Below are positions 4,334 to 58,050 of a stretch of 64,000 nucleotides of DNA, one piece after another. The translations under genes were made by a program, and so were the position numbers. The first letter of the stretch is position 1, and every line of letters begins with the position of its first letter. Source of the stretch: a virus. The stretch spans positions 2,689-66,688 of IMG/VR virus record IMGVR_UViG_3300021605_000004; one strand, given 5' to 3'. The notes beneath the pieces were generated by a model. It did no database searches, was not told the origin of the DNA, and saw nothing but the letters and a program-made list of their open reading frames with translations.

Positions 4334-4536
4334 TTATGGTTACAGATTACATCATAAGCATTAATTTTCCCAATGAACTCCGTCAGGTCGAAGATAAAGT
4401 CGTGTTCGTTGAGGATGGACCCATCCTCAATTTTCACAACGCGTACTTTCTTCTCCAACTCGTAATATGCCACCAGGACTTTACCGATCTGTGTCGATAA
4501 TATCCCACTCTCGTAAATGAAATGAATCGTCTTCAT
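4330..4536 (-). CDS. Hypothetical protein
   Basis: Coupled ORF. Confidence 0.55.
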   Translation of the reverse strand: MKTIHFIYESGILSTQIGKVLVAYYELEKKVRVVKIEDGSILNEHDFIFDLTEFIGKINAYDVICNHK

Positions 4537-4775
4537 GCCGGATAGATTTGGGATCTCAGGACTTCGTACTGCCCCCAGACTGAGTTAATAACTACTGTGT
4601 CCTTGTCGTCTGCGATGATGATGCCCCAAACCAGGTCTTCATCAATGAAAAACTCGCAGGGAGTGTAAACGGTTGCCGTCCTACGGAACCTGTCAACCTT
4701 CCGAGTTACTGAAATTAAAATATATGCTATTGTAATAACACATATTCCAAGCATAATAAATGAAAATGTCCTCAT
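4533..4775 (-). CDS. Hypothetical membrane-anchored protein
   Basis: N-terminal hydrophobic helix. Confidence 0.55.
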   Translation of the reverse strand: MRTFSFIMLGICVITIAYILISVTRKVDRFRRTATVYTPCEFFIDEDLVWGIIIADDKDTVVINSVWGQYEVLRSQIYPA

Positions 4776-4792
4776 AGTTATTTTGATTTAGG

Positions 4793-5032
4793 TTAATATT
4801 TGCGGATTCCTATGACACCACTGCGTTTCAGCACACAGCGTATGGCCGAGATAGACATATCAAACTCACCGGCCAATACCTTAACAATTTCACCGATGGC
4901 ACCGGATAATTGCTTATACCTTATTAATATATTGGCATTGCGTGAATTTTTAATCGCCTGTCTTTCAGTAAGCAGAACCTTGCTGATACTATTTTTCTTG
5001 CTTTTCGTGTCTACAATCATTATCTTTGACAT
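4793..5032 (-). CDS. Cro-like small HTH regulator; start revised to MSKIMI
   Basis: Divergent from the repressor; C-terminal VKVLAGEFDMSISAIRCVLKR; promoter at 5066-5096 lies just upstream. Confidence 0.55.
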   Translation of the reverse strand: MSKIMIVDTKSKKNSISKVLLTERQAIKNSRNANILIRYKQLSGAIGEIVKVLAGEFDMSISAIRCVLKRSGVIGIRKY

Positions 5033-5065
5033 TATGTTTATTACAATAACAAATAAAATACTTGG

Positions 5066-5096
5066 CAAATATACACCTGATATTTGAATTTCCAAA
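5066..5096 (-). promoter_or_regulatory. Bacteroidota sigma-A-type promoter for the leftward early operon
   Basis: TTTG-N19-TATATTTG on the minus strand. Confidence 0.7.
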
Positions 5097-5132
5097 TAAA
5101 AATATAAGTTTTTACAAAAAAAGTTTTTAACA

Positions 5133-5537
5133 ATGGGGACAATTATACATTTGAAGATGAAAGCAGCCCGTGAATCGTTAGGAATAACGCAGGTTGCAGC
5201 ATCCAAAGAGGCAAAATATAATCAGAGCCAACTTTCACTGATGGAAAGCGGCGAGACGACATTTATCCCAAATAACTATCTGTCGTGGATGGCAAAGCAT
5301 GGCGCGGACCTGAATGGCATATTCAATCCGGACGTGTCGCTGGAAATGTATAAGGATATGTGTACCGTAGCTTCTGAGAAGTTATCTCATCCGCCGGTGG
5401 ACACAAGCCATATTTGCCAGAAGTGTGAGGAGAAAGATCACCAGATAAAGACACTGGAGCAGTATGTGGACGATCTGAGGTTTATGATACGTAAGCCGGT
5501 CAACCCTCCTGAAAATACGAGTGATCCTGGATCATAA
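5133..5537 (+). CDS. XRE-family CI-like repressor
   Basis: MKAARESLGITQVAASKEAKYNQSQLSLMESG HTH plus C-terminal coiled coil. Confidence 0.8.
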   Translation: MGTIIHLKMKAARESLGITQVAASKEAKYNQSQLSLMESGETTFIPNNYLSWMAKHGADLNGIFNPDVSLEMYKDMCTVASEKLSHPPVDTSHICQKCEEKDHQIKTLEQYVDDLRFMIRKPVNPPENTSDPGS

Positions 5538-51784: not shown

Positions 51785-52548
51785 AATGAGCAGTTTTTAC
51801 AGTCACTGCACCTTGCGGTCATCGTTAATGCGTCCTTGCGGAACCGCCTCATATTTGAACCGTTCCAGATGCGGCCAAACTTTTCCGTGAATCCATTCCC
51901 CACCTCATTGTACGAGTAGCATGGAACAAGTGAGCCGTCGGTGTTTATTGTGATGAATGAGAACGGGGCGCGGCAAGTGGTTTTTGTGTTGAAGTCTTTT
52001 GGCCGGGTACTGGGCGCGTTGCCCTCGCAGTACACAGTGAAGCCATCCTCCATTCCGTCGATATGCCCTCCCGTCTGGTTGAACAGTTCTATCGGGATGA
52101 TATTCTCAGCCTGTACGTCCAACCAGTGCTGTGGATTATCATATACCGACACGCGAACCAGCTTTAGGTTCTCGAACTGTTCCAGGAGCCACTGCTTATC
52201 GGTAGTCAAATAATCACCGTTGGTCGTCACGGAGAATGGTATCCCGTACATGTCAACGGTATCACAGAACAGCATAAAATGAGGGTGCATCATTGGCTCA
52301 CCCTTACCGGTAATGGCGATGTGCTTCACCTTGTGCTTTATGTTGTGAAGGAACAAATGGAACTTCTCCACGTCCATGTCTTTGGGCTGTGACTTCACCC
52401 ACCGGTTATGCTCAGTATCGGCTAACGTTGGAGAGTGGTACGGGCAGAACGAACATGTCCGGTTGCACCGGTTGGTGATATTTACCGCCAGATACAGTGG
52501 GAGCGGGCTGAAGCCCTGCGCGGCCTTATAAATCAAATTTTTTACCAT
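51781..52548 (-). CDS. Radical SAM/SPASM protein
   Basis: CNRTCSFC, GEPMMHP, TTNG, CRAPF...DGSLVPC...CKNC. Confidence 0.9.
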   Translation of the reverse strand: MVKNLIYKAAQGFSPLPLYLAVNITNRCNRTCSFCPYHSPTLADTEHNRWVKSQPKDMDVEKFHLFLHNIKHKVKHIAITGKGEPMMHPHFMLFCDTVDMYGIPFSVTTNGDYLTTDKQWLLEQFENLKLVRVSVYDNPQHWLDVQAENIIPIELFNQTGGHIDGMEDGFTVYCEGNAPSTRPKDFNTKTTCRAPFSFITINTDGSLVPCYSYNEVGNGFTEKFGRIWNGSNMRRFRKDALTMTARCSDCKNCSL

Positions 52549-53339
52549 CGTTTGAGGATTATGGAAATCATGTCCCGGACAAACCGATACAGGAGATATA
52601 AAACCGTGGAAACCTTGCAGCCATACCGCCAGATGAAATCAAACCGGATTTTATGGTTGCCGATAACGTACTTAAGACGCTTTATCCTGTCGCGGGTATG
52701 CGTCACGGACTCATCCATGATACAAAACACTGAGCCGTAGAACTCAGGCATCCGGGCGAGTTTGTAATGCCTGACCAGTGTTAGAACAATCGGCAAGTCC
52801 CATACGTGAAAGCCCTTGCGGATAAACTCATCCATGTCCACATGTGCCTTGAAGTCACACCGGCGGATCATGTAGGACTGGGCATAGATACAGGCCGAAC
52901 CTTTAAGTAAAGTGTCGAAGGTGATCGGCGCGGTGCTGCGGACACTGGTGATGTTATTGCCACGCTCCACCAACACATCATGGACACTTAACGCCACATC
53001 ATCGTGCGCATCCATAAACTCGACTTGTTTTTGAAGTTTGTTATGACTGTAAAACCAGTCGTCCGCGTCACAGAGACTTATGTACTCACCCTTGCACCGG
53101 CTCAGTCCTACCGCGTAGTTCTTCATCATGCCCAGGTGCTGCGGAAACTCAATACATGACAACAAGTTGTTGTCATAATATTCTTGGATTATCCCCCGAC
53201 TCCCGTCCGTTGAACCGTCATCACAGACGATGATCTGGACTGGGAACGTTGTAACCTGCGCCAGGACGCTGTCGATGGCGCGGCGGACAGTGGATACGTG
53301 GTTGTAGCAGGTGATGAGGACTGAGACTTTGTATGTCAT
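52542..53339 (-). CDS. GT2-family glycosyltransferase
   Basis: VSVLITCYNH, CDDGSTDGS, GEYISLCDADD, KLQKQV. Confidence 0.9.
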   Translation of the reverse strand: MTYKVSVLITCYNHVSTVRRAIDSVLAQVTTFPVQIIVCDDGSTDGSRGIIQEYYDNNLLSCIEFPQHLGMMKNYAVGLSRCKGEYISLCDADDWFYSHNKLQKQVEFMDAHDDVALSVHDVLVERGNNITSVRSTAPITFDTLLKGSACIYAQSYMIRRCDFKAHVDMDEFIRKGFHVWDLPIVLTLVRHYKLARMPEFYGSVFCIMDESVTHTRDRIKRLKYVIGNHKIRFDFIWRYGCKVSTVLYLLYRFVRDMISIILKRW

Positions 53340-53950
53340 AAGAGTGTGAGTTGTTTGTTTTCAGGAGTTGCTGCACTAATTCTCGCCGTGGCTATCTGGA
53401 TATATTCTTCCTGTAACTCAGAACCAATAAAATTGAATCCTTCCTGTTTACAGGAGATTAACGTAGATCCACTTCCTGAGAACGGATCATAGACTAAACC
53501 ATTTGGCTGAGTGACAAGCCTTACCAAATAGCGCATTAAGGCCAGTGGTTTTACCGTTGGGTGGTTGTTCTTTTGTGGAGTTGTAAATCCGTGCATTCTG
53601 TCAACAAACGGATCTCCGGTTCTGTTTCGGTACTCGTCGTCTTTATGCTTTGGTTCTATGCCACCGCAACCCATATTCCTTTCGGAAGGACTTACCTTGG
53701 CGCAGTAAAAGAATCGGGCAGCGGAACCCTTATCGCCATAAAATGATTCACCGTCGTCACCTTTCTGTGAGAAGTCGCCATAAATACCATTCGACTTACC
53801 ATCCATGCCACGCTTTACCGGAGCAGCAGCACCGCCATTTATCGGAAACATCGCCACCACTTCATCCTTTCCTGAATTTGGTAAAATATTAAACATTGCC
53901 TTAATATCATTAGGCATTTTATCGTACAACGGCTGTTCTATTTTTACCAT
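53336..53950 (-). CDS. C-terminal half of a split N4/N6 DNA methyltransferase
   Basis: GSAARFFYCAK, NHPTVKP, SAM motif DPFSGSGST; no DPPY. Confidence 0.88.
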   Translation of the reverse strand: MVKIEQPLYDKMPNDIKAMFNILPNSGKDEVVAMFPINGGAAAPVKRGMDGKSNGIYGDFSQKGDDGESFYGDKGSAARFFYCAKVSPSERNMGCGGIEPKHKDDEYRNRTGDPFVDRMHGFTTPQKNNHPTVKPLALMRYLVRLVTQPNGLVYDPFSGSGSTLISCKQEGFNFIGSELQEEYIQIATARISAATPENKQLTLL

Positions 53951-54563
53951 TTCTTCTGCCTTTAAAATTTGGAACGTATTTTCTGTTATGTTCTTCGCAA
54001 TGGCATTTACAACATAGCGTTATCCCATTTTCAATATCCCACAACTCATTGCAAACCCTTGCATCATTTCTGCTTTTAATGTTAAAAATCTCGATAATCT
54101 TTGACAATTCAATTTTATGGTGGCTTTCTAATTCATCAATACTGCCACATCTTACACACTTACCATCGCGTATCTTCACGGCATCCATCCAATTTCTATT
54201 TTCAGTCATTGTCCTAATAGAAATATTTAATCTGGAAATTCCGCCTTTCCATTGATAATGATTTTCACCACGGCATTTTTTTCCACGATCAATTATCTTA
54301 TTTCGATTTTCGGCACACCATTTTTTATGTGATTCTGAACGCTTTATGTTTGATTCTTTGCTTTTAGGTATTCCAGATAAATGATTTGTACCCTTTAATC
54401 TGCCAAGTTGCAATGATTCTTTTTGACAATCGGTAATAGGAAATATTTTTTTACATTGTTCTCGGTGTTTATAACACGCAACATATCTAACTTTAACCAA
54501 CTCATGTGGTCGTCGATACATTGGTTTATCACAAATAAAACATTTACAATTAGGTGTTCTCAT
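53919..54563 (-). CDS. Free-standing HNH endonuclease splitting the methyltransferase
   Basis: RGENHYQWKGG, RDGKCVRCG..LESHH, NGITLCCKCH. Confidence 0.9.
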   Translation of the reverse strand: MRTPNCKCFICDKPMYRRPHELVKVRYVACYKHREQCKKIFPITDCQKESLQLGRLKGTNHLSGIPKSKESNIKRSESHKKWCAENRNKIIDRGKKCRGENHYQWKGGISRLNISIRTMTENRNWMDAVKIRDGKCVRCGSIDELESHHKIELSKIIEIFNIKSRNDARVCNELWDIENGITLCCKCHCEEHNRKYVPNFKGRRNGKNRTAVVR

Positions 54564-56592
54564 TCAGCCATTTATAAAGTTTATCTTTTTGTTCCTTGCT
54601 TAAATTATCTTTACAAAGACACTCATTTTCTGGATAAGAAACAATAAGGTTGGCGGGGAACCTACCTGAACTTGGTACTCCAGTTAATTTATTATTCTCG
54701 TTTTTAAATCCACTCCCATCTTTCCATAACGGGGCCTCACGTTCTTTACGTTCAACGGTACGTAGCATATCGTCAACTTCGGGGTTTGTTTCAACCCTAC
54801 ACCCGTCAATATTTATCCCACCCGTTCCCCACTTCAGGACGTTTTCGGCTACCGTTTTCTCCGATAGCGGCTTGCGAGCAATCGTGATCAGTTCCATTGC
54901 GGGTTTTAGTGCGGTTCCCCAACCATCCCATTGCTTTGCGGCATCGGTGGCGGGGGCGGTGATGTCAAATTCTTTTTCTCCTGCAAAATTCGATATTGTT
55001 CCCCCCGTTAATCCAGCACAACCAGTACCTATTACTTCTCGTTCTGCTTGTTGTATATTTTCAAATGGTAATTCCAAAAAGTTCTTAATTGTATTATACT
55101 GTTCCGTGGTAATTCCTTGAGTTTTTTGTTTATTCCATAACCATCCTGTTGGATTCCCATTTTTACTTGGGAATAACATTGTAAGTTCTTTTCTACTTAT
55201 CCCTTTTTCATCTGCAATATTTAAGATATAATCAATAAACCAACCAAGTGAAGTTCCATTCTGCTTATCCAACGCCTTACTGATGGATAGACTTTTCGGG
55301 AAGCCTGAATTGCCCGTAATAAAAATTTTGCCATTTCTTCTGGCTACAAATGCTCCAGTTGGGACTTCAACACACCAAACATTCCCCTTGTACTCTATGG
55401 GGGTTATCGTTGCTCTTGTGATTCGTGTAGTTTGTGTGCTTGATTGGTTTGAAACAACATTAGATTCTCTATCCTGTTGTCCTGCGGGTTGTGATTTAAG
55501 TGATGAACAACCTCTGTTCTTAAAAGCGTTCTGTTTATTGATTTTGCCATTATCAATCGGTGTTCCATTACATATCCGTCTTTTCGAGCCATGCCCATAA
55601 ATTCTATCGGACACCTCACGTATTTTATAGGTAAATAATTCCCATGTTTTTTGAAATAAGTCACACCGCCCTTCCATGCAGGATTTAATTCCCCCCGTAA
55701 TCCAGTTCCGGGAAATTTCAAACCTGTTCTGTCGAATTTGTTTGCTGTCAAATTTATGCCCCTCAGTTTCCCGTTGCACCGATTTGAGCAAGTTGGATTT
55801 TTTATTTTCTTTAACCACGCATTCGGTTTCCACACTTGTTTGTGGCACACAGGGCAGGTTATTAATGTCTTTTGTTGTTGTTCTATTGGGATAATTGGCA
55901 AAATTCTGTTTCTCAGAAGTAATTTGCTTCTGCACGGTATGGAGCAGGTCTTGTTTCGTAATGCTTGTTCCTTGTTCCGGGTAGTAAATGGTTTCTGGCA
56001 AATCTGACAAACTTTCCAAAAAGGGTATATTCTCTTGCTGTTCAAGTGTTTCTGCGTAGGCAAATTCTTTTCTTCCGCTTCGTTCAACAATGACACGATG
56101 ATTTCTACTGACAATTTGATCTGTATTATCTGATTGTATTCGGTAAGCGGTATGTTTGTTTTCATAATGATAGCTCTTTGTAGGAACGTGAAATTCAAAT
56201 TTATTTTCATTACAAAGATAACATAATACGGGATTAAATGCAATGTTTTTATTGTATCGTTCCCACCCGTTTATTGTTAATATTTCGGTATCTTCAGATA
56301 AGCATCCGTACACCCACGCAATTATATCACGTAACTCAAATCCTGCATCTTCGATATTCACAGCCATCCGATGTTGGGTGCGGGTTCCACAGAAACACAG
56401 TAGGTATCCTCCGGGCTTCAATACTCGCAGACATTCGGTGAAGGTTGCCACGTCCGGGATAGAGTAATCCCACTTCTTTCCCATGAAGGAAATTCCGTAT
56501 GGAGGATCTGTGACAATGGAATCCAGAAAATTATCTGGCATCCGCTTCATGGTTTCCAGATTTGATTCGTTGTATATCCTGTTCACTTCCAT
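54550..56592 (-). CDS. N-terminal half of a split DNA methyltransferase, containing an intein
   Basis: DSIVTDPPY, AWVYG|intein|SGFPKS, WDGWGTALKPA, GTGGINIDGCRV, GRFPANL; no SAM motif I. Confidence 0.9.
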   Translation of the reverse strand: MEVNRIYNESNLETMKRMPDNFLDSIVTDPPYGISFMGKKWDYSIPDVATFTECLRVLKPGGYLLCFCGTRTQHRMAVNIEDAGFELRDIIAWVYGCLSEDTEILTINGWERYNKNIAFNPVLCYLCNENKFEFHVPTKSYHYENKHTAYRIQSDNTDQIVSRNHRVIVERSGRKEFAYAETLEQQENIPFLESLSDLPETIYYPEQGTSITKQDLLHTVQKQITSEKQNFANYPNRTTTKDINNLPCVPQTSVETECVVKENKKSNLLKSVQRETEGHKFDSKQIRQNRFEISRNWITGGIKSCMEGRCDLFQKTWELFTYKIREVSDRIYGHGSKRRICNGTPIDNGKINKQNAFKNRGCSSLKSQPAGQQDRESNVVSNQSSTQTTRITRATITPIEYKGNVWCVEVPTGAFVARRNGKIFITGNSGFPKSLSISKALDKQNGTSLGWFIDYILNIADEKGISRKELTMLFPSKNGNPTGWLWNKQKTQGITTEQYNTIKNFLELPFENIQQAEREVIGTGCAGLTGGTISNFAGEKEFDITAPATDAAKQWDGWGTALKPAMELITIARKPLSEKTVAENVLKWGTGGINIDGCRVETNPEVDDMLRTVERKEREAPLWKDGSGFKNENNKLTGVPSSGRFPANLIVSYPENECLCKDNLSKEQKDKLYKWLNENT
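55309..56304 (-). mobile_element. Intein, 332 aa
   Basis: Block A CLSEDTEILTINGW, block B VSRNHRV, blocks F/G YKGNVWCVEVPTGAFVARRNGKIFITGN, +1 Ser; removal restores VYG-SGFPKS. Confidence 0.92.
55404..56165 (-). CDS. HNH endonuclease with Zn fingers nested in the intein, +1 frame; start uncertain (frame open to 56243)
   Basis: CQIC/CSIPC, CPVC/CSNRC, RGELNPAWKGG, GYVMEHRLIM, VVHHLNHNPQDNRIENL. Confidence 0.85.
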   Translation of the reverse strand: MKTNIPLTEYNQIIQIKLSVEIIVSLLNEAEEKNLPTQKHLNSKRIYPFWKVCQICQKPFTTRNKEQALRNKTCSIPCRSKLLLRNRILPIIPIEQQQKTLITCPVCHKQVWKPNAWLKKIKNPTCSNRCNGKLRGINLTANKFDRTGLKFPGTGLRGELNPAWKGGVTYFKKHGNYLPIKYVRCPIEFMGMARKDGYVMEHRLIMAKSINRTLLRTEVVHHLNHNPQDNRIENLMLFQTNQAHKLHESQEQR

Positions 56593-56700
56593 ATTTTTGG
56601 CCTCCCTTGGTACTGCGCCAGTACGCTGTCGATGGCGCGGCGGACGGTGGATACGTGGTTGAAGCAGGTGATGAGGACTGAGACTTTATACATCATAAGA
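56573..56700 (-). pseudogene. Chimeric duplication scar: GT2 5' end fused to the 3' end of gene 57736-58050
   Basis: 56613-56700 matches 53256-53343 (6 mismatches in 88 bp); 56573-56617 matches 57726-57770 (1 in 45 bp). Confidence 0.9.
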
Positions 56701-57745
56701 ATAATCCTATTTGGTCTGTAATTCTTTTTTCTGCGATTTTGATATAGGCTGGATTGAGTTCAAATCCGATGTAGTTTCTATTTAGTTTTCTGGCCACTAA
56801 AGCTGTCGTTCCAGCACCCATGAATGGATCAAGAACTACCCCCCCCTCTGGACATCCGGCCAGTATGCAGGGCTGAATTAACTTTTCAGGAAACGTGGCG
56901 AAATGAGCATCTGTAAACGGTTTGGTTGTTACAGTCCAGACTGACTTTTTATTAGCCATGCCATTTCCAATTACACTTCCATCTTCATCATAATTACCTG
57001 AATGGTGGGCAAGTTTTTTATCTCCAGTGCCACGGTGGTCATAACCTTTTCTTAACTCACCAACCACCTTCATGTTCCCATTTGTTTTACAGGGTACGCG
57101 TTCACTACCTGTTTGATTTTCTATGTCCTGAAGCAATCGCTGAATCGACGCATCTTTTATCGGTGTTTTTATAGACTCGGCGTCGTAGTAGTATTTCTGC
57201 GACTTGCTCAATAGGAAAATATACTCATGCGCCTTTGTGCAACGGTCTGTGACAGATTCTGGCATGGGGTTCGGTTTGTTCCAGATTATATCCTGCCTTA
57301 AATACCACCCATCGGCACGCAAGGCAAAGGCGACCATCCAAGGAATTCCTATTAGGTCTTTGGGCTTAATAATAGAATGTTTCCTATCAGTAGGTCGTGT
57401 TTCCCCCTTGCCTGATATTTGATGTTGGCTACCTTCAATAGTATTACGATCCAAATGTTCCGTACTCCATGCCTGACCTGATTGACCTTTGCCACCCCAA
57501 TACGAATCCCCAAGATTTAACCATAACGTGCCGTCATTTTGAAGAACACGCTTCACTTCTCTGAACGCCTGAACCAATTTTGCAACGTAGGCTTCTGGTG
57601 TTTCCTCTAAACCTATCTGATCAACCGTTCCGTAATCCCTCAATCCATAATAAGGCGGCGATGTAACACAACAATCCACTGATTTATCAGCAATATCAGC
57701 CATGCCAGTAATACAGTTCGTGTTATATATCCTGTTCACTTCCAT
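56693..57745 (-). CDS. Site-specific DNA methyltransferase (N4/N6, beta-type motif order)
   Basis: VTSPPY, LNLGDSY, WYLRQDIIWNKPNPMPES, HFATFP, DPFMGAGTT. Confidence 0.93.
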   Translation of the reverse strand: MEVNRIYNTNCITGMADIADKSVDCCVTSPPYYGLRDYGTVDQIGLEETPEAYVAKLVQAFREVKRVLQNDGTLWLNLGDSYWGGKGQSGQAWSTEHLDRNTIEGSQHQISGKGETRPTDRKHSIIKPKDLIGIPWMVAFALRADGWYLRQDIIWNKPNPMPESVTDRCTKAHEYIFLLSKSQKYYYDAESIKTPIKDASIQRLLQDIENQTGSERVPCKTNGNMKVVGELRKGYDHRGTGDKKLAHHSGNYDEDGSVIGNGMANKKSVWTVTTKPFTDAHFATFPEKLIQPCILAGCPEGGVVLDPFMGAGTTALVARKLNRNYIGFELNPAYIKIAEKRITDQIGLFL

Positions 57746-58050
57746 ATTTTTGGCCTCCCCTGGTACTGCGGCAATGACGCCAAGTCGCTCTCTGGTTCGG
57801 GTTCTATAACTTTAGGCTTAACTGGCTCTTTCTTACCCGCCTCCACCGGCTGTATCTCATATCCAACCGGGCAGTTATCGTACCCGAAGGAAATAAACTC
57901 AACGGACAAGCCGAGGCCTTCTAAAGTTTCTTTGATTAAGTCGCGATATGCCCTGAGATCATTCTGCCCGAACCGGTGCGAGACGGAAATTGCCTTGCCG
58001 TGAGTGGACTTGAGGGTGATTTGGAGTGTCGTAAGGTGTAGGGATGTCAT
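57736..58050 (-). CDS. Hypothetical protein
   Basis: Coupled ORF. Confidence 0.6.
   Translation of the reverse strand: MTSLHLTTLQITLKSTHGKAISVSHRFGQNDLRAYRDLIKETLEGLGLSVEFISFGYDNCPVGYEIQPVEAGKKEPVKPKVIEPEPESDLASLPQYQGRPKIWK

Follow-up and report, generated by a model that had tools for sequence, protein, structure and literature searches.

Two reading frames are open across an intein in a phage methylase gene

We analyzed a viral DNA stretch of 64,000 nucleotides (hereafter the window; IMG/VR record IMGVR_UViG_3300021605_000004, positions 2,689 to 66,688), in which an intein that interrupts an N6_N4 DNA methylase gene shares its DNA with a second reading frame that encodes an HNH nuclease. 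The window is part of a phage genome; neighboring open reading frames (ORFs) match PHROG tail protein, virion structural protein, and helicase families. The interrupted methylase gene and the features within it lie on the minus strand. The N-terminal part of the methylase, intein included, is a 680-residue ORF (54550 to 56592) that matches Pfam N6_N4_Mtase with an E value of 3.5e-10, over profile positions 2 to 132 of 221. Its N-extein (56305 to 56592, 96 residues, bounded by the ORF start and the G|C junction) contains a DPPY motif and ends in ...AWVYG. The intein (55309 to 56304, 332 residues) begins with the Cys codon at 56304 to 56302, directly after ...VYG, and has the N-terminal sequence CLSEDTEILT; it carries C1, H69 within block B (SRNH, residues 66 to 69), C311, and T330-G331-N332 followed by Ser+1. 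Its last residue is the Asn codon at 55311 to 55309 (...IFITGN), after which the methylase resumes at the Ser of SGFPKS. The C-extein stretch of the same ORF runs from SGFPKS... to ...RFPANLIV, with a short tail (54550 to 55308).

In the +1 frame, the same DNA contains an ORF of 279 codons from the first TTG (55404 to 56243; stop codon at 55406 to 55404). Within it we delineate a probable HNH endonuclease coding sequence of 253 residues starting at ATG 56165 (55404 to 56165), an assignment based on a conserved ATG column, the start of a free-standing relative, and the structural model; it comprises N-terminal helices, two Cys4 zinc fingers, and an HNH_3 core. A degenerate Shine-Dalgarno-like sequence, AAAGAG (56174 to 56179), identified by motif comparison, lies 8 nucleotides upstream of this ATG. 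An earlier reading of the letters alone (the sequence-only reading) had described an intein at 55309 to 56304 with C1, SRNH, and a terminal GN/S, a host-frame middle without a stop codon, and a zinc-finger HNH nuclease in the +1 frame from 56243 to 55404. All of its coordinates hold; the window intein has 0 host-frame stops and a middle that is predicted to be disordered, and the +1 frame scores 30.6 bits against Pfam HNH_3, above the cut-off of 24.8.

We consider it likely that the locus is a mobile two-gene cassette, consisting of a splicing intein and a separately translated, overlapping HNH homing endonuclease within a phage methylase. Ribosomes translating the methylase would read straight through the intein in the host frame; the N-terminal part of the Hint domain (residues 1 to ∼110-140) and the C-terminal part (∼290-332) would fold together, with the ∼140 to 180 residues between them forming a tolerated, unstructured loop, and the intein would splice out between ...VYG and SGFPKS.... 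The HNH_3 zinc-finger nuclease, in the +1 register, would be translated alone from the internal start at ATG 56165, inside the N-terminal Hint part. It would then cut methylase alleles that have no intein, upon which repair would copy in the whole cassette. Under this scheme selection would preserve the HNH sequence and merely forbid stops in the host frame, except over the first ∼45 HNH codons, where both frames would be constrained.

The overlapping layout is abundant

Related loci were gathered by searching with the HNH, which yielded 80 loci from viral contigs, 80 from metagenomes, and 34 from genomes; the record of phage Mantra (L002) was fetched separately. The set used for classification has 163 sequences, that is, 162 loci and the window. 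Both splice junctions, together with an HNH frame set +1 to an open methylase frame, were found in 136 of the 163. Six more are cut by a contig end and are consistent with the same layout, three appear degraded (L096, L111, and L121), and in 15 the same HNH lies +1 to the frame of a methylase that has no intein. Three loci each form a class of their own: L053, where the HNH gene is free-standing; L073, where it is antisense between methylase halves; and the Mantra record. The 136 loci reduce to 116 distinct intein DNAs of 269 to 427 codons, with GC contents of 0.32 to 0.61.

The layout is present in LR756508.1 (L001), a record of a huge uncultured phage whose HNH is 41% identical, and in genome contigs, including that of the isolate Plastorhodobacter daqingensis (L167). 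Carriers are phages and prophages of many phyla, cultured hosts included. A protein collection holds 783 HNH-sized relatives, counted regardless of genomic context, and a megablast search of phage records found no near-identical record. Inteins whose HNH lies out of frame are thus an abundant family, with at least 116 distinct sequences. HNH identities that fall to ∼35 to 40% indicate that the family is old, and by sequence it appears to be still mobile.

The host frame has the features of an intein

The host-frame intein was aligned for 83 sequences (alignment A3), and C1, H69, C311, T330, G331, and N332 are invariant in all 83. An N-terminal nucleophile, which in inteins is Cys, Ser, or Thr, is therefore present (C1), as is a terminal Asn (N332) followed by Ser at the +1 position, which in inteins is Ser, Thr, or Cys. 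The block B motif of inteins is TxxH; here the His (H69) is invariant, and Ser replaces the usual Thr (SRNH). The G|C and ...TGN|SGFPK junctions occur in all 136 complete loci, with TGFPK in one genome locus, and empty alleles, namely Mantra gp64 and the intein-less loci, are contiguous at ...YG|SGFPKS....

A profile of the intein matched the solved AceL NrdHF intein (6zgq) at 3.3e-7. In an AlphaFold2 (AF2) model, predicted local distance difference test scores (pLDDT) exceed 90 for residues 1 to 140 and 290 to 332 and are below 50 for residues 152 to 271 and 280 to 289; of the Foldseek matches listed for this model, nearly all are to inteins or Hint domains, the best at 4.7e-5. The N-terminal Hint part can accordingly be placed at 55885 to 56304 (residues 1 to ∼140) from the AF2 model, and the C-terminal Hint part with blocks F and G at 55309 to 55437 (residues 290 to 332) from the invariant residues and the same model. 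Between them, pLDDT, codon variability, and stop avoidance delimit a host-frame passenger loop of predicted disorder (55438 to 55851, residues 152 to 289), which is the HNH gene read through in the −1 register. A passenger loop in a splicing-competent intein, as the sequence-only reading had it, is the best supported arrangement: the Hint parts are conserved and confidently folded in the model, and the loop is predicted to be disordered. One check it had proposed, hidden Markov model searches of both frames, succeeded for HNH_3 in the +1 frame and failed for a Pfam Hint family in the host frame, though there the profile matches 6zgq.

The invariant Cys of block F (residue 311, window ∼55372 to 55374) is accompanied by an equally invariant block G Thr, and a class 3 intein is the closest match of known structure. 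Class 3 inteins have a WCT triplet, with Trp in block B, Cys in block F, and Thr in block G, and use the block F Cys. In the present family C311 and T330 are invariant, but C1 is present and block B has no Trp at the expected place. The residue pattern hints at a class 3-like mechanism despite Cys1.

Codon statistics distinguish the two frames

The catalytic core of the nuclease was located by Pfam at 55440 to 55514 (residues 244 to 268 of the 279-codon frame). The +1 frame also matches eight PHROG HNH families, the best at 1.7e-14. In an alignment of the HNH proteins (A4), H221, H222, N241, and H244 are invariant, and the eight zinc-binding Cys residues are invariant or nearly so; the structural model has a mean pLDDT of 89.4.

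No host-frame stop was found in any of the 116 distinct intein DNAs (116/116), whereas the +2 frame has 9 to 44; the +1 stretch is open for 169 to 353 codons. To obtain an expectation, synonymous codons were permuted within the HNH frame of the 116 sequences (11,600 shuffles). The shuffles predict 6.4 to 23 host-frame stops per sequence (median, 13.1), and none of the 11,600 was free of stops, while the control frame had 18.3 stops observed versus 17.7 shuffled. For the window (100 shuffles), the mean was 13.65 host-frame stops and the minimum 7, compared with 0 observed; its third frame has 34 stops versus 31.3 in shuffles. The host frame is open beyond chance.

Variability by codon position was examined after aligning 111 of the 116 sequences by codon, the five with a +1 stretch of fewer than 240 codons being dropped. 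Over the first ∼70 codons of the +1 stretch, variability either is highest at the host third position or is unusually low throughout the codon (0.16 to 0.38). From about HNH codon 73 through the end, it is highest at the HNH third position (0.43 to 0.68), whereas at the HNH second position, equivalent to the host third, it drops to values as small as 0.04 to 0.14 in the catalytic region. Because of this pattern, we conclude from the alignment that the HNH frame is under purifying selection and that the middle of the host frame is selected only for openness, with the ends selected as an intein. In the N-terminal Hint part, host-frame selection is supported by the codon statistics only as far as about residue 107.

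Evidence against the cassette and alternative explanations

Several observations weigh against the two-gene cassette. For the nuclease, comparison of the HNH model with the PDB gave no significant fold match (best E value, 0.29), and a search of the HNH profile against PDB sequences returned weak zinc-finger matches only and no relative. Thirty-four of the 111 aligned sequences have no ATG in the column equivalent to 56165; many homologues have AAAGGAG at the Shine-Dalgarno-like site, where the window has only its degenerate version, and the stretch was not found in any RNA run listed. For the intein, the penultimate residue is an invariant Gly (G331) instead of the His that is usual there, although not obligatory, since other residues occur at this place in active inteins, and a Pfam scan of the single window intein, whole and as N- and C-terminal pieces at E values up to 10, gave only chance-level matches and no intein or Hint family. 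The host-frame and HNH models are both AF2 confident over the overlap (host residues ∼100 to 140), and there the confidence may be partly an echo of conservation imposed by the other frame. Finally, a second HNH gene, described below, also splits the window methylase, and with the gene split in this way it is uncertain whether the window copy gives an active methylase.

The penultimate Gly, the absent Pfam match, and the second split would each fit an intein that no longer splices, here or generally, so that the insert is a tolerated loop resembling the ShiLan domain (see below) or the methylase copy is dead; related intein-less loci do tolerate the same HNH read-through. We regard this as unlikely. 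C1, the His of block B, the terminal Asn, and Ser+1 have remained invariant across 83 diverged sequences. The Hint parts evolve under host-frame selection, and such conservation would be unexpected for a dead splicing domain.

The cassette further supposes that the nuclease is made from its own start. The sequence-only reading had left the choice between ATG 56165 and a +1 frameshift, and the comparison now favors the first. An ATG occupies a single alignment column, that of 56165, in 77 of the 111 sequences, and an AGGAG-like motif lies 5 to 17 nucleotides upstream in 48 of these 77 but in only 6 of the 34 without the ATG, counts that come from related, non-independent sequences. Some ATG lies upstream of the first zinc finger in 109 of 111. 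The conserved ATG is formed by a host Tyr codon and a following codon that begins with G, and the Tyr codon is TAT in 81 of 107 cases, versus 60.2 expected from each locus's own usage. In L053, the free-standing gene starts at the residue equivalent to ATG 56165 and keeps the N-terminal helices, and the former intein frame is full of stops. The conserved ATG, the upstream motif, and the start of L053 together favor an internal start, which would lay ∼45 HNH codons over the folded N-terminal Hint part, block B included. A promoter scan found 8 promoter-like sites, compared with 11.0 expected from shuffles; one of them (minus strand, 56280 to 56251) is upstream of the HNH start and was given no weight.

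A programmed +1 frameshift, for example at CCC-TTT-TTG near 56020, would instead produce a fusion of N-extein, N-terminal Hint part, and HNH. The T-run at the entry to the zinc fingers in the window would let a Phe-tRNA re-pair in the +1 frame, and each of the 136 intein loci, like the 15 intein-less ones, has its HNH in the +1 register. We nevertheless think a frameshift quite improbable: the ∼45 residues upstream of the candidate site are conserved in L053, whose ORF starts there; the ATG is conserved together with its AGGAG-like motif; and the T-run is explained by double coding, since IPFLES and YPFWK are both conserved.

A third possibility is that the HNH frame is an unexpressed relic of an in-frame endonuclease displaced by two compensating indels. 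Canonical HNH inteins do have the nuclease in frame, according to the accessible part of a recent preprint (bioRxiv 10.1101/2025.01.02.630785), and one protein, P0002 (801 residues), has the HNH frame fused to the C-terminal Hint part and C-extein, although this may be a one-indel variant or an error. P0002, only half in frame, was the single product of a search of longer proteins for an in-frame HNH; that no fully in-frame version appeared speaks weakly against a relic, as a blank in such a search is weak evidence. Further objections come from the frame itself: in 114 of 116 sequences it runs for at least 213 codons without a stop, with third positions the most variable and second positions nearly fixed. 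When host codons were shuffled in the reverse test, the HNH frame stayed open in only 17 of 11,600 cases. Near-identical cassettes in divergent genes, described below, also imply a working nuclease, and we find a relic very hard to credit.

A sequencing or assembly artefact, or an RNA-level intron, is scarcely conceivable: a G6 homopolymer run does lie inside the region, but the relation between the frames recurs in 116 distinct sequences drawn from many assemblies, the contigs that cover the stretch in runs of three other studies (X5, X6, and X10) show 0 to 1 base differences and no indels, and an intron would have no need of an open host frame. The pair of compensating indel errors that the sequence-only reading had named as its possible undoing is thus absent from these contigs, and the overlapping intein/HNH layout is confirmed as real. 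A group I or group II intron with an endonuclease ORF was considered separately and rejected, as Rfam gave no match at E values up to 1 over 52500 to 58000 and selection keeps the host frame open. Lake and freshwater contigs have an intein and N-extein identical to those of the window; X5 and X6 diverge 14 nucleotides into the C-extein (left of 55295). Several metagenome contigs break at 56569 to 56617, near the methylase gene start.

Mobility of the cassette and other forms of the HNH gene

HNH identity and extein identity are weakly correlated (r ∼0.3; 3,160 pairs of 80 loci). The inteins of L088 and L009 are 99.2% identical over 1,032 nucleotides, in exteins that are ∼60% identical, even within the 60 nucleotides next to each junction, and four further pairs combine near-identical inteins with divergent exteins. 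Near-identical cassettes in divergent methylases point to recent, precise movement between genes, and these comparisons therefore indicate that the cassette has recently been mobile between divergent methylase genes.

The intein-less loci with a hidden HNH are L063, L065, L068 to L071, L074 to L076, L078 to L082, and L137, with L173, L177, L180, and L182 to L185 in addition; L180 is a Cupriavidus isolate. There a shorter form of the HNH follows SGFPKS at a distance of a few residues, in the +1 frame relative to the open methylase frame. Pairs of Cys residues in the host frame (CxC ... CxxC) flank the insert in 9 of the 12 intein-less loci examined (all except L065, L069, and L082), and by their sequence they look like a zinc ribbon closing the loop. 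In L073 (1868 to 4006), an antisense HNH of the family interrupts the methylase, which lies on the opposite strand, just upstream of the ...YG|SGFPKS point at which inteins insert; the N-half of the methylase ends in WCHC and CPCC opens the C-half, which may be a zinc ribbon in two pieces. In L004, a second HNH ORF (4525 to 5259, 244 residues) occupies another frame of an open methylase frame of 1,191 codons, near the site at which the window methylase is split, and beyond it there is a third insert. Similarity between the second HNH of the window and that of L004 is only weak (E value, 0.001), and the two were not treated as the same element.

A tree of 125 HNH proteins, obtained by a quick search and rooted at the midpoint, does not give the direction of change. 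The free-standing L053 and the hidden L065 nest within clades of intein-borne HNHs with support of at least 99 in the Shimodaira-Hasegawa-like approximate likelihood ratio test (SH-aLRT). The antisense L073 also nests in such a clade (support, 81 to 84), and 11 of 12 hidden HNHs fall on one side of a weakly supported branch (82). A single HNH lineage may have switched repeatedly among four interchangeable forms within the methylase, namely overlapped by an intein, hidden without an intein in the read-through loop of a CxC...CxxC zinc ribbon, antisense between the halves, and free-standing; we advance this tentatively, with doubt slightly outweighing belief. If it is true, the family would be a natural series illustrating the capture of mini-inteins by free-standing nucleases and the origin, from these, of hidden nuclease genes and fractured genes, and ∼45 codons of the intein form would encode two folds, the Hint strands including block B and the N-terminal helices of the HNH.

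Other features of the window methylase

The second HNH gene (53919 to 54563, minus strand) is a free-standing ORF of 214 residues that splits the methylase; it matches phrog_8446 at 5.9e-7 and Pfam HNH at 0.0017, below the cut-off. Beyond it lies the C-terminal part of the methylase (53336 to 53950, minus strand; 204 residues), with the S-adenosylmethionine-binding motif DPFSGSGST and an N6_N4_Mtase match of 2.1e-20 over profile positions 159 to 220. Because the second HNH gene overlaps both methylase parts, the N-terminal part (which ends at 54550) by 14 nucleotides and the C-terminal part by 32, there is no room for a ribozyme at this split. Homologues of the second HNH begin at the very end of the ORF for the N-terminal methylase part in L007, L124, L035, and L013. 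Another methylase lies upstream (56693 to 57745) and has the same first eight residues as the intein-bearing one.

Significance and relation to known systems

The family is a clean and statistically strong case of gene overlap in which selection acts on the sequence of one frame and in the other only keeps stops out, and it links inteins, hidden HNH insertions, and split genes through one gene family. Gene callers miss the nuclease in such loci or mis-describe the methylase. If the model is right, a loop of ∼140 to 180 residues of arbitrary sequence is tolerated between the Hint halves, which would be of interest for intein engineering.

The closest counterparts are actinobacteriophage inteins whose homing endonuclease has a reading frame of its own (Gosselin, Arsenault, and Gogarten; bioRxiv 10.1101/2025.01.02.630785), for which the authors infer that a free-standing endonuclease invaded the intein and that horizontal transfer continued. 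As far as the accessible text of that preprint goes, those inteins and the present one share a complete intein, an unrecognizable host-frame middle that is read through, and a second ORF that is the nuclease. The window intein likewise has the attributes of these noncanonical inteins, an endonuclease ORF inside the intein but in another frame and a host-frame middle without recognizable structure. The cases described there differ in their nucleases (endonuclease VII-like on the same strand in frame 3, LAGLIDADG or VSR-like in antisense, and HNH only in frame) and in their hosts, which are DNA polymerase, minor capsid, terminase, and thymidylate synthase genes rather than a methylase. Their second ORFs typically lie outside the splicing domain, whereas here ∼45 HNH codons overlap the N-terminal Hint part, including block B.

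The ShiLan domain of mycobacteriophage methylases, by contrast, is a hidden out-of-frame HNH without a splicing domain (Arsenault, Gosselin, and Gogarten, Genes 2025, PMC11855218; also PMC9957025 and PMC12613952). In the portions of these papers available, it has in common with the window an N6_N4 methylase host, a hidden zinc-finger HNH, a stop-free methylase frame, and a distribution that suggests homing, and Mantra gp64 (L002) is among its examples. Its site is another one (...ARKP...), and its HNH is in the third frame; the HNH of the window is in the +1 frame of a bona fide intein with complete Hint parts. The ShiLan arrangement, with no splicing domain, is matched instead by the 15 related loci of the intein-less hidden type.

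Outside phages, a cyanobacterial dnaX intein with an out-of-frame LAGLIDADG endonuclease has been described in a preprint (Phillips, DeSimone, and Gogarten; bioRxiv 10.64898/2026.09.14.751524) whose accessible text credits the idea to Gorbalenya 1998 and terms the arrangement a rarity. It resembles the present family in its broad distribution, a constrained overlapping endonuclease ORF, and a host frame that is relaxed in the overlap, and differs in having a LAGLIDADG enzyme, a +2 ORF, and a cellular gene where we find HNH_3, a +1 frame, and a phage methylase. A possible evolutionary neighbor is the fractured gene, in which a free-standing endonuclease gene lies between the halves of a split intein (Dassa et al. 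2009, PMC2677866, as far as its accessible text describes). There too a Hint domain is associated with a nuclease that is a gene product in its own right; the host gene and intein are, however, physically split, while here the nuclease gene overlaps a contiguous intein.

Full-text searches and the accessible parts of these papers gave no +1-frame HNH inside an N6_N4 methylase intein, although the supplements might list further cases. On the accessible sources, the general kind is thus known, in publications of one laboratory from 2025 on that trace it back to 1998, both as out-of-frame endonucleases in inteins and as hidden HNHs in methylases, and the methylase intein with a +1-frame HNH is a very abundant addition to it: out-of-frame intein endonucleases have been termed rare in recent papers, and here one such arrangement is abundant.

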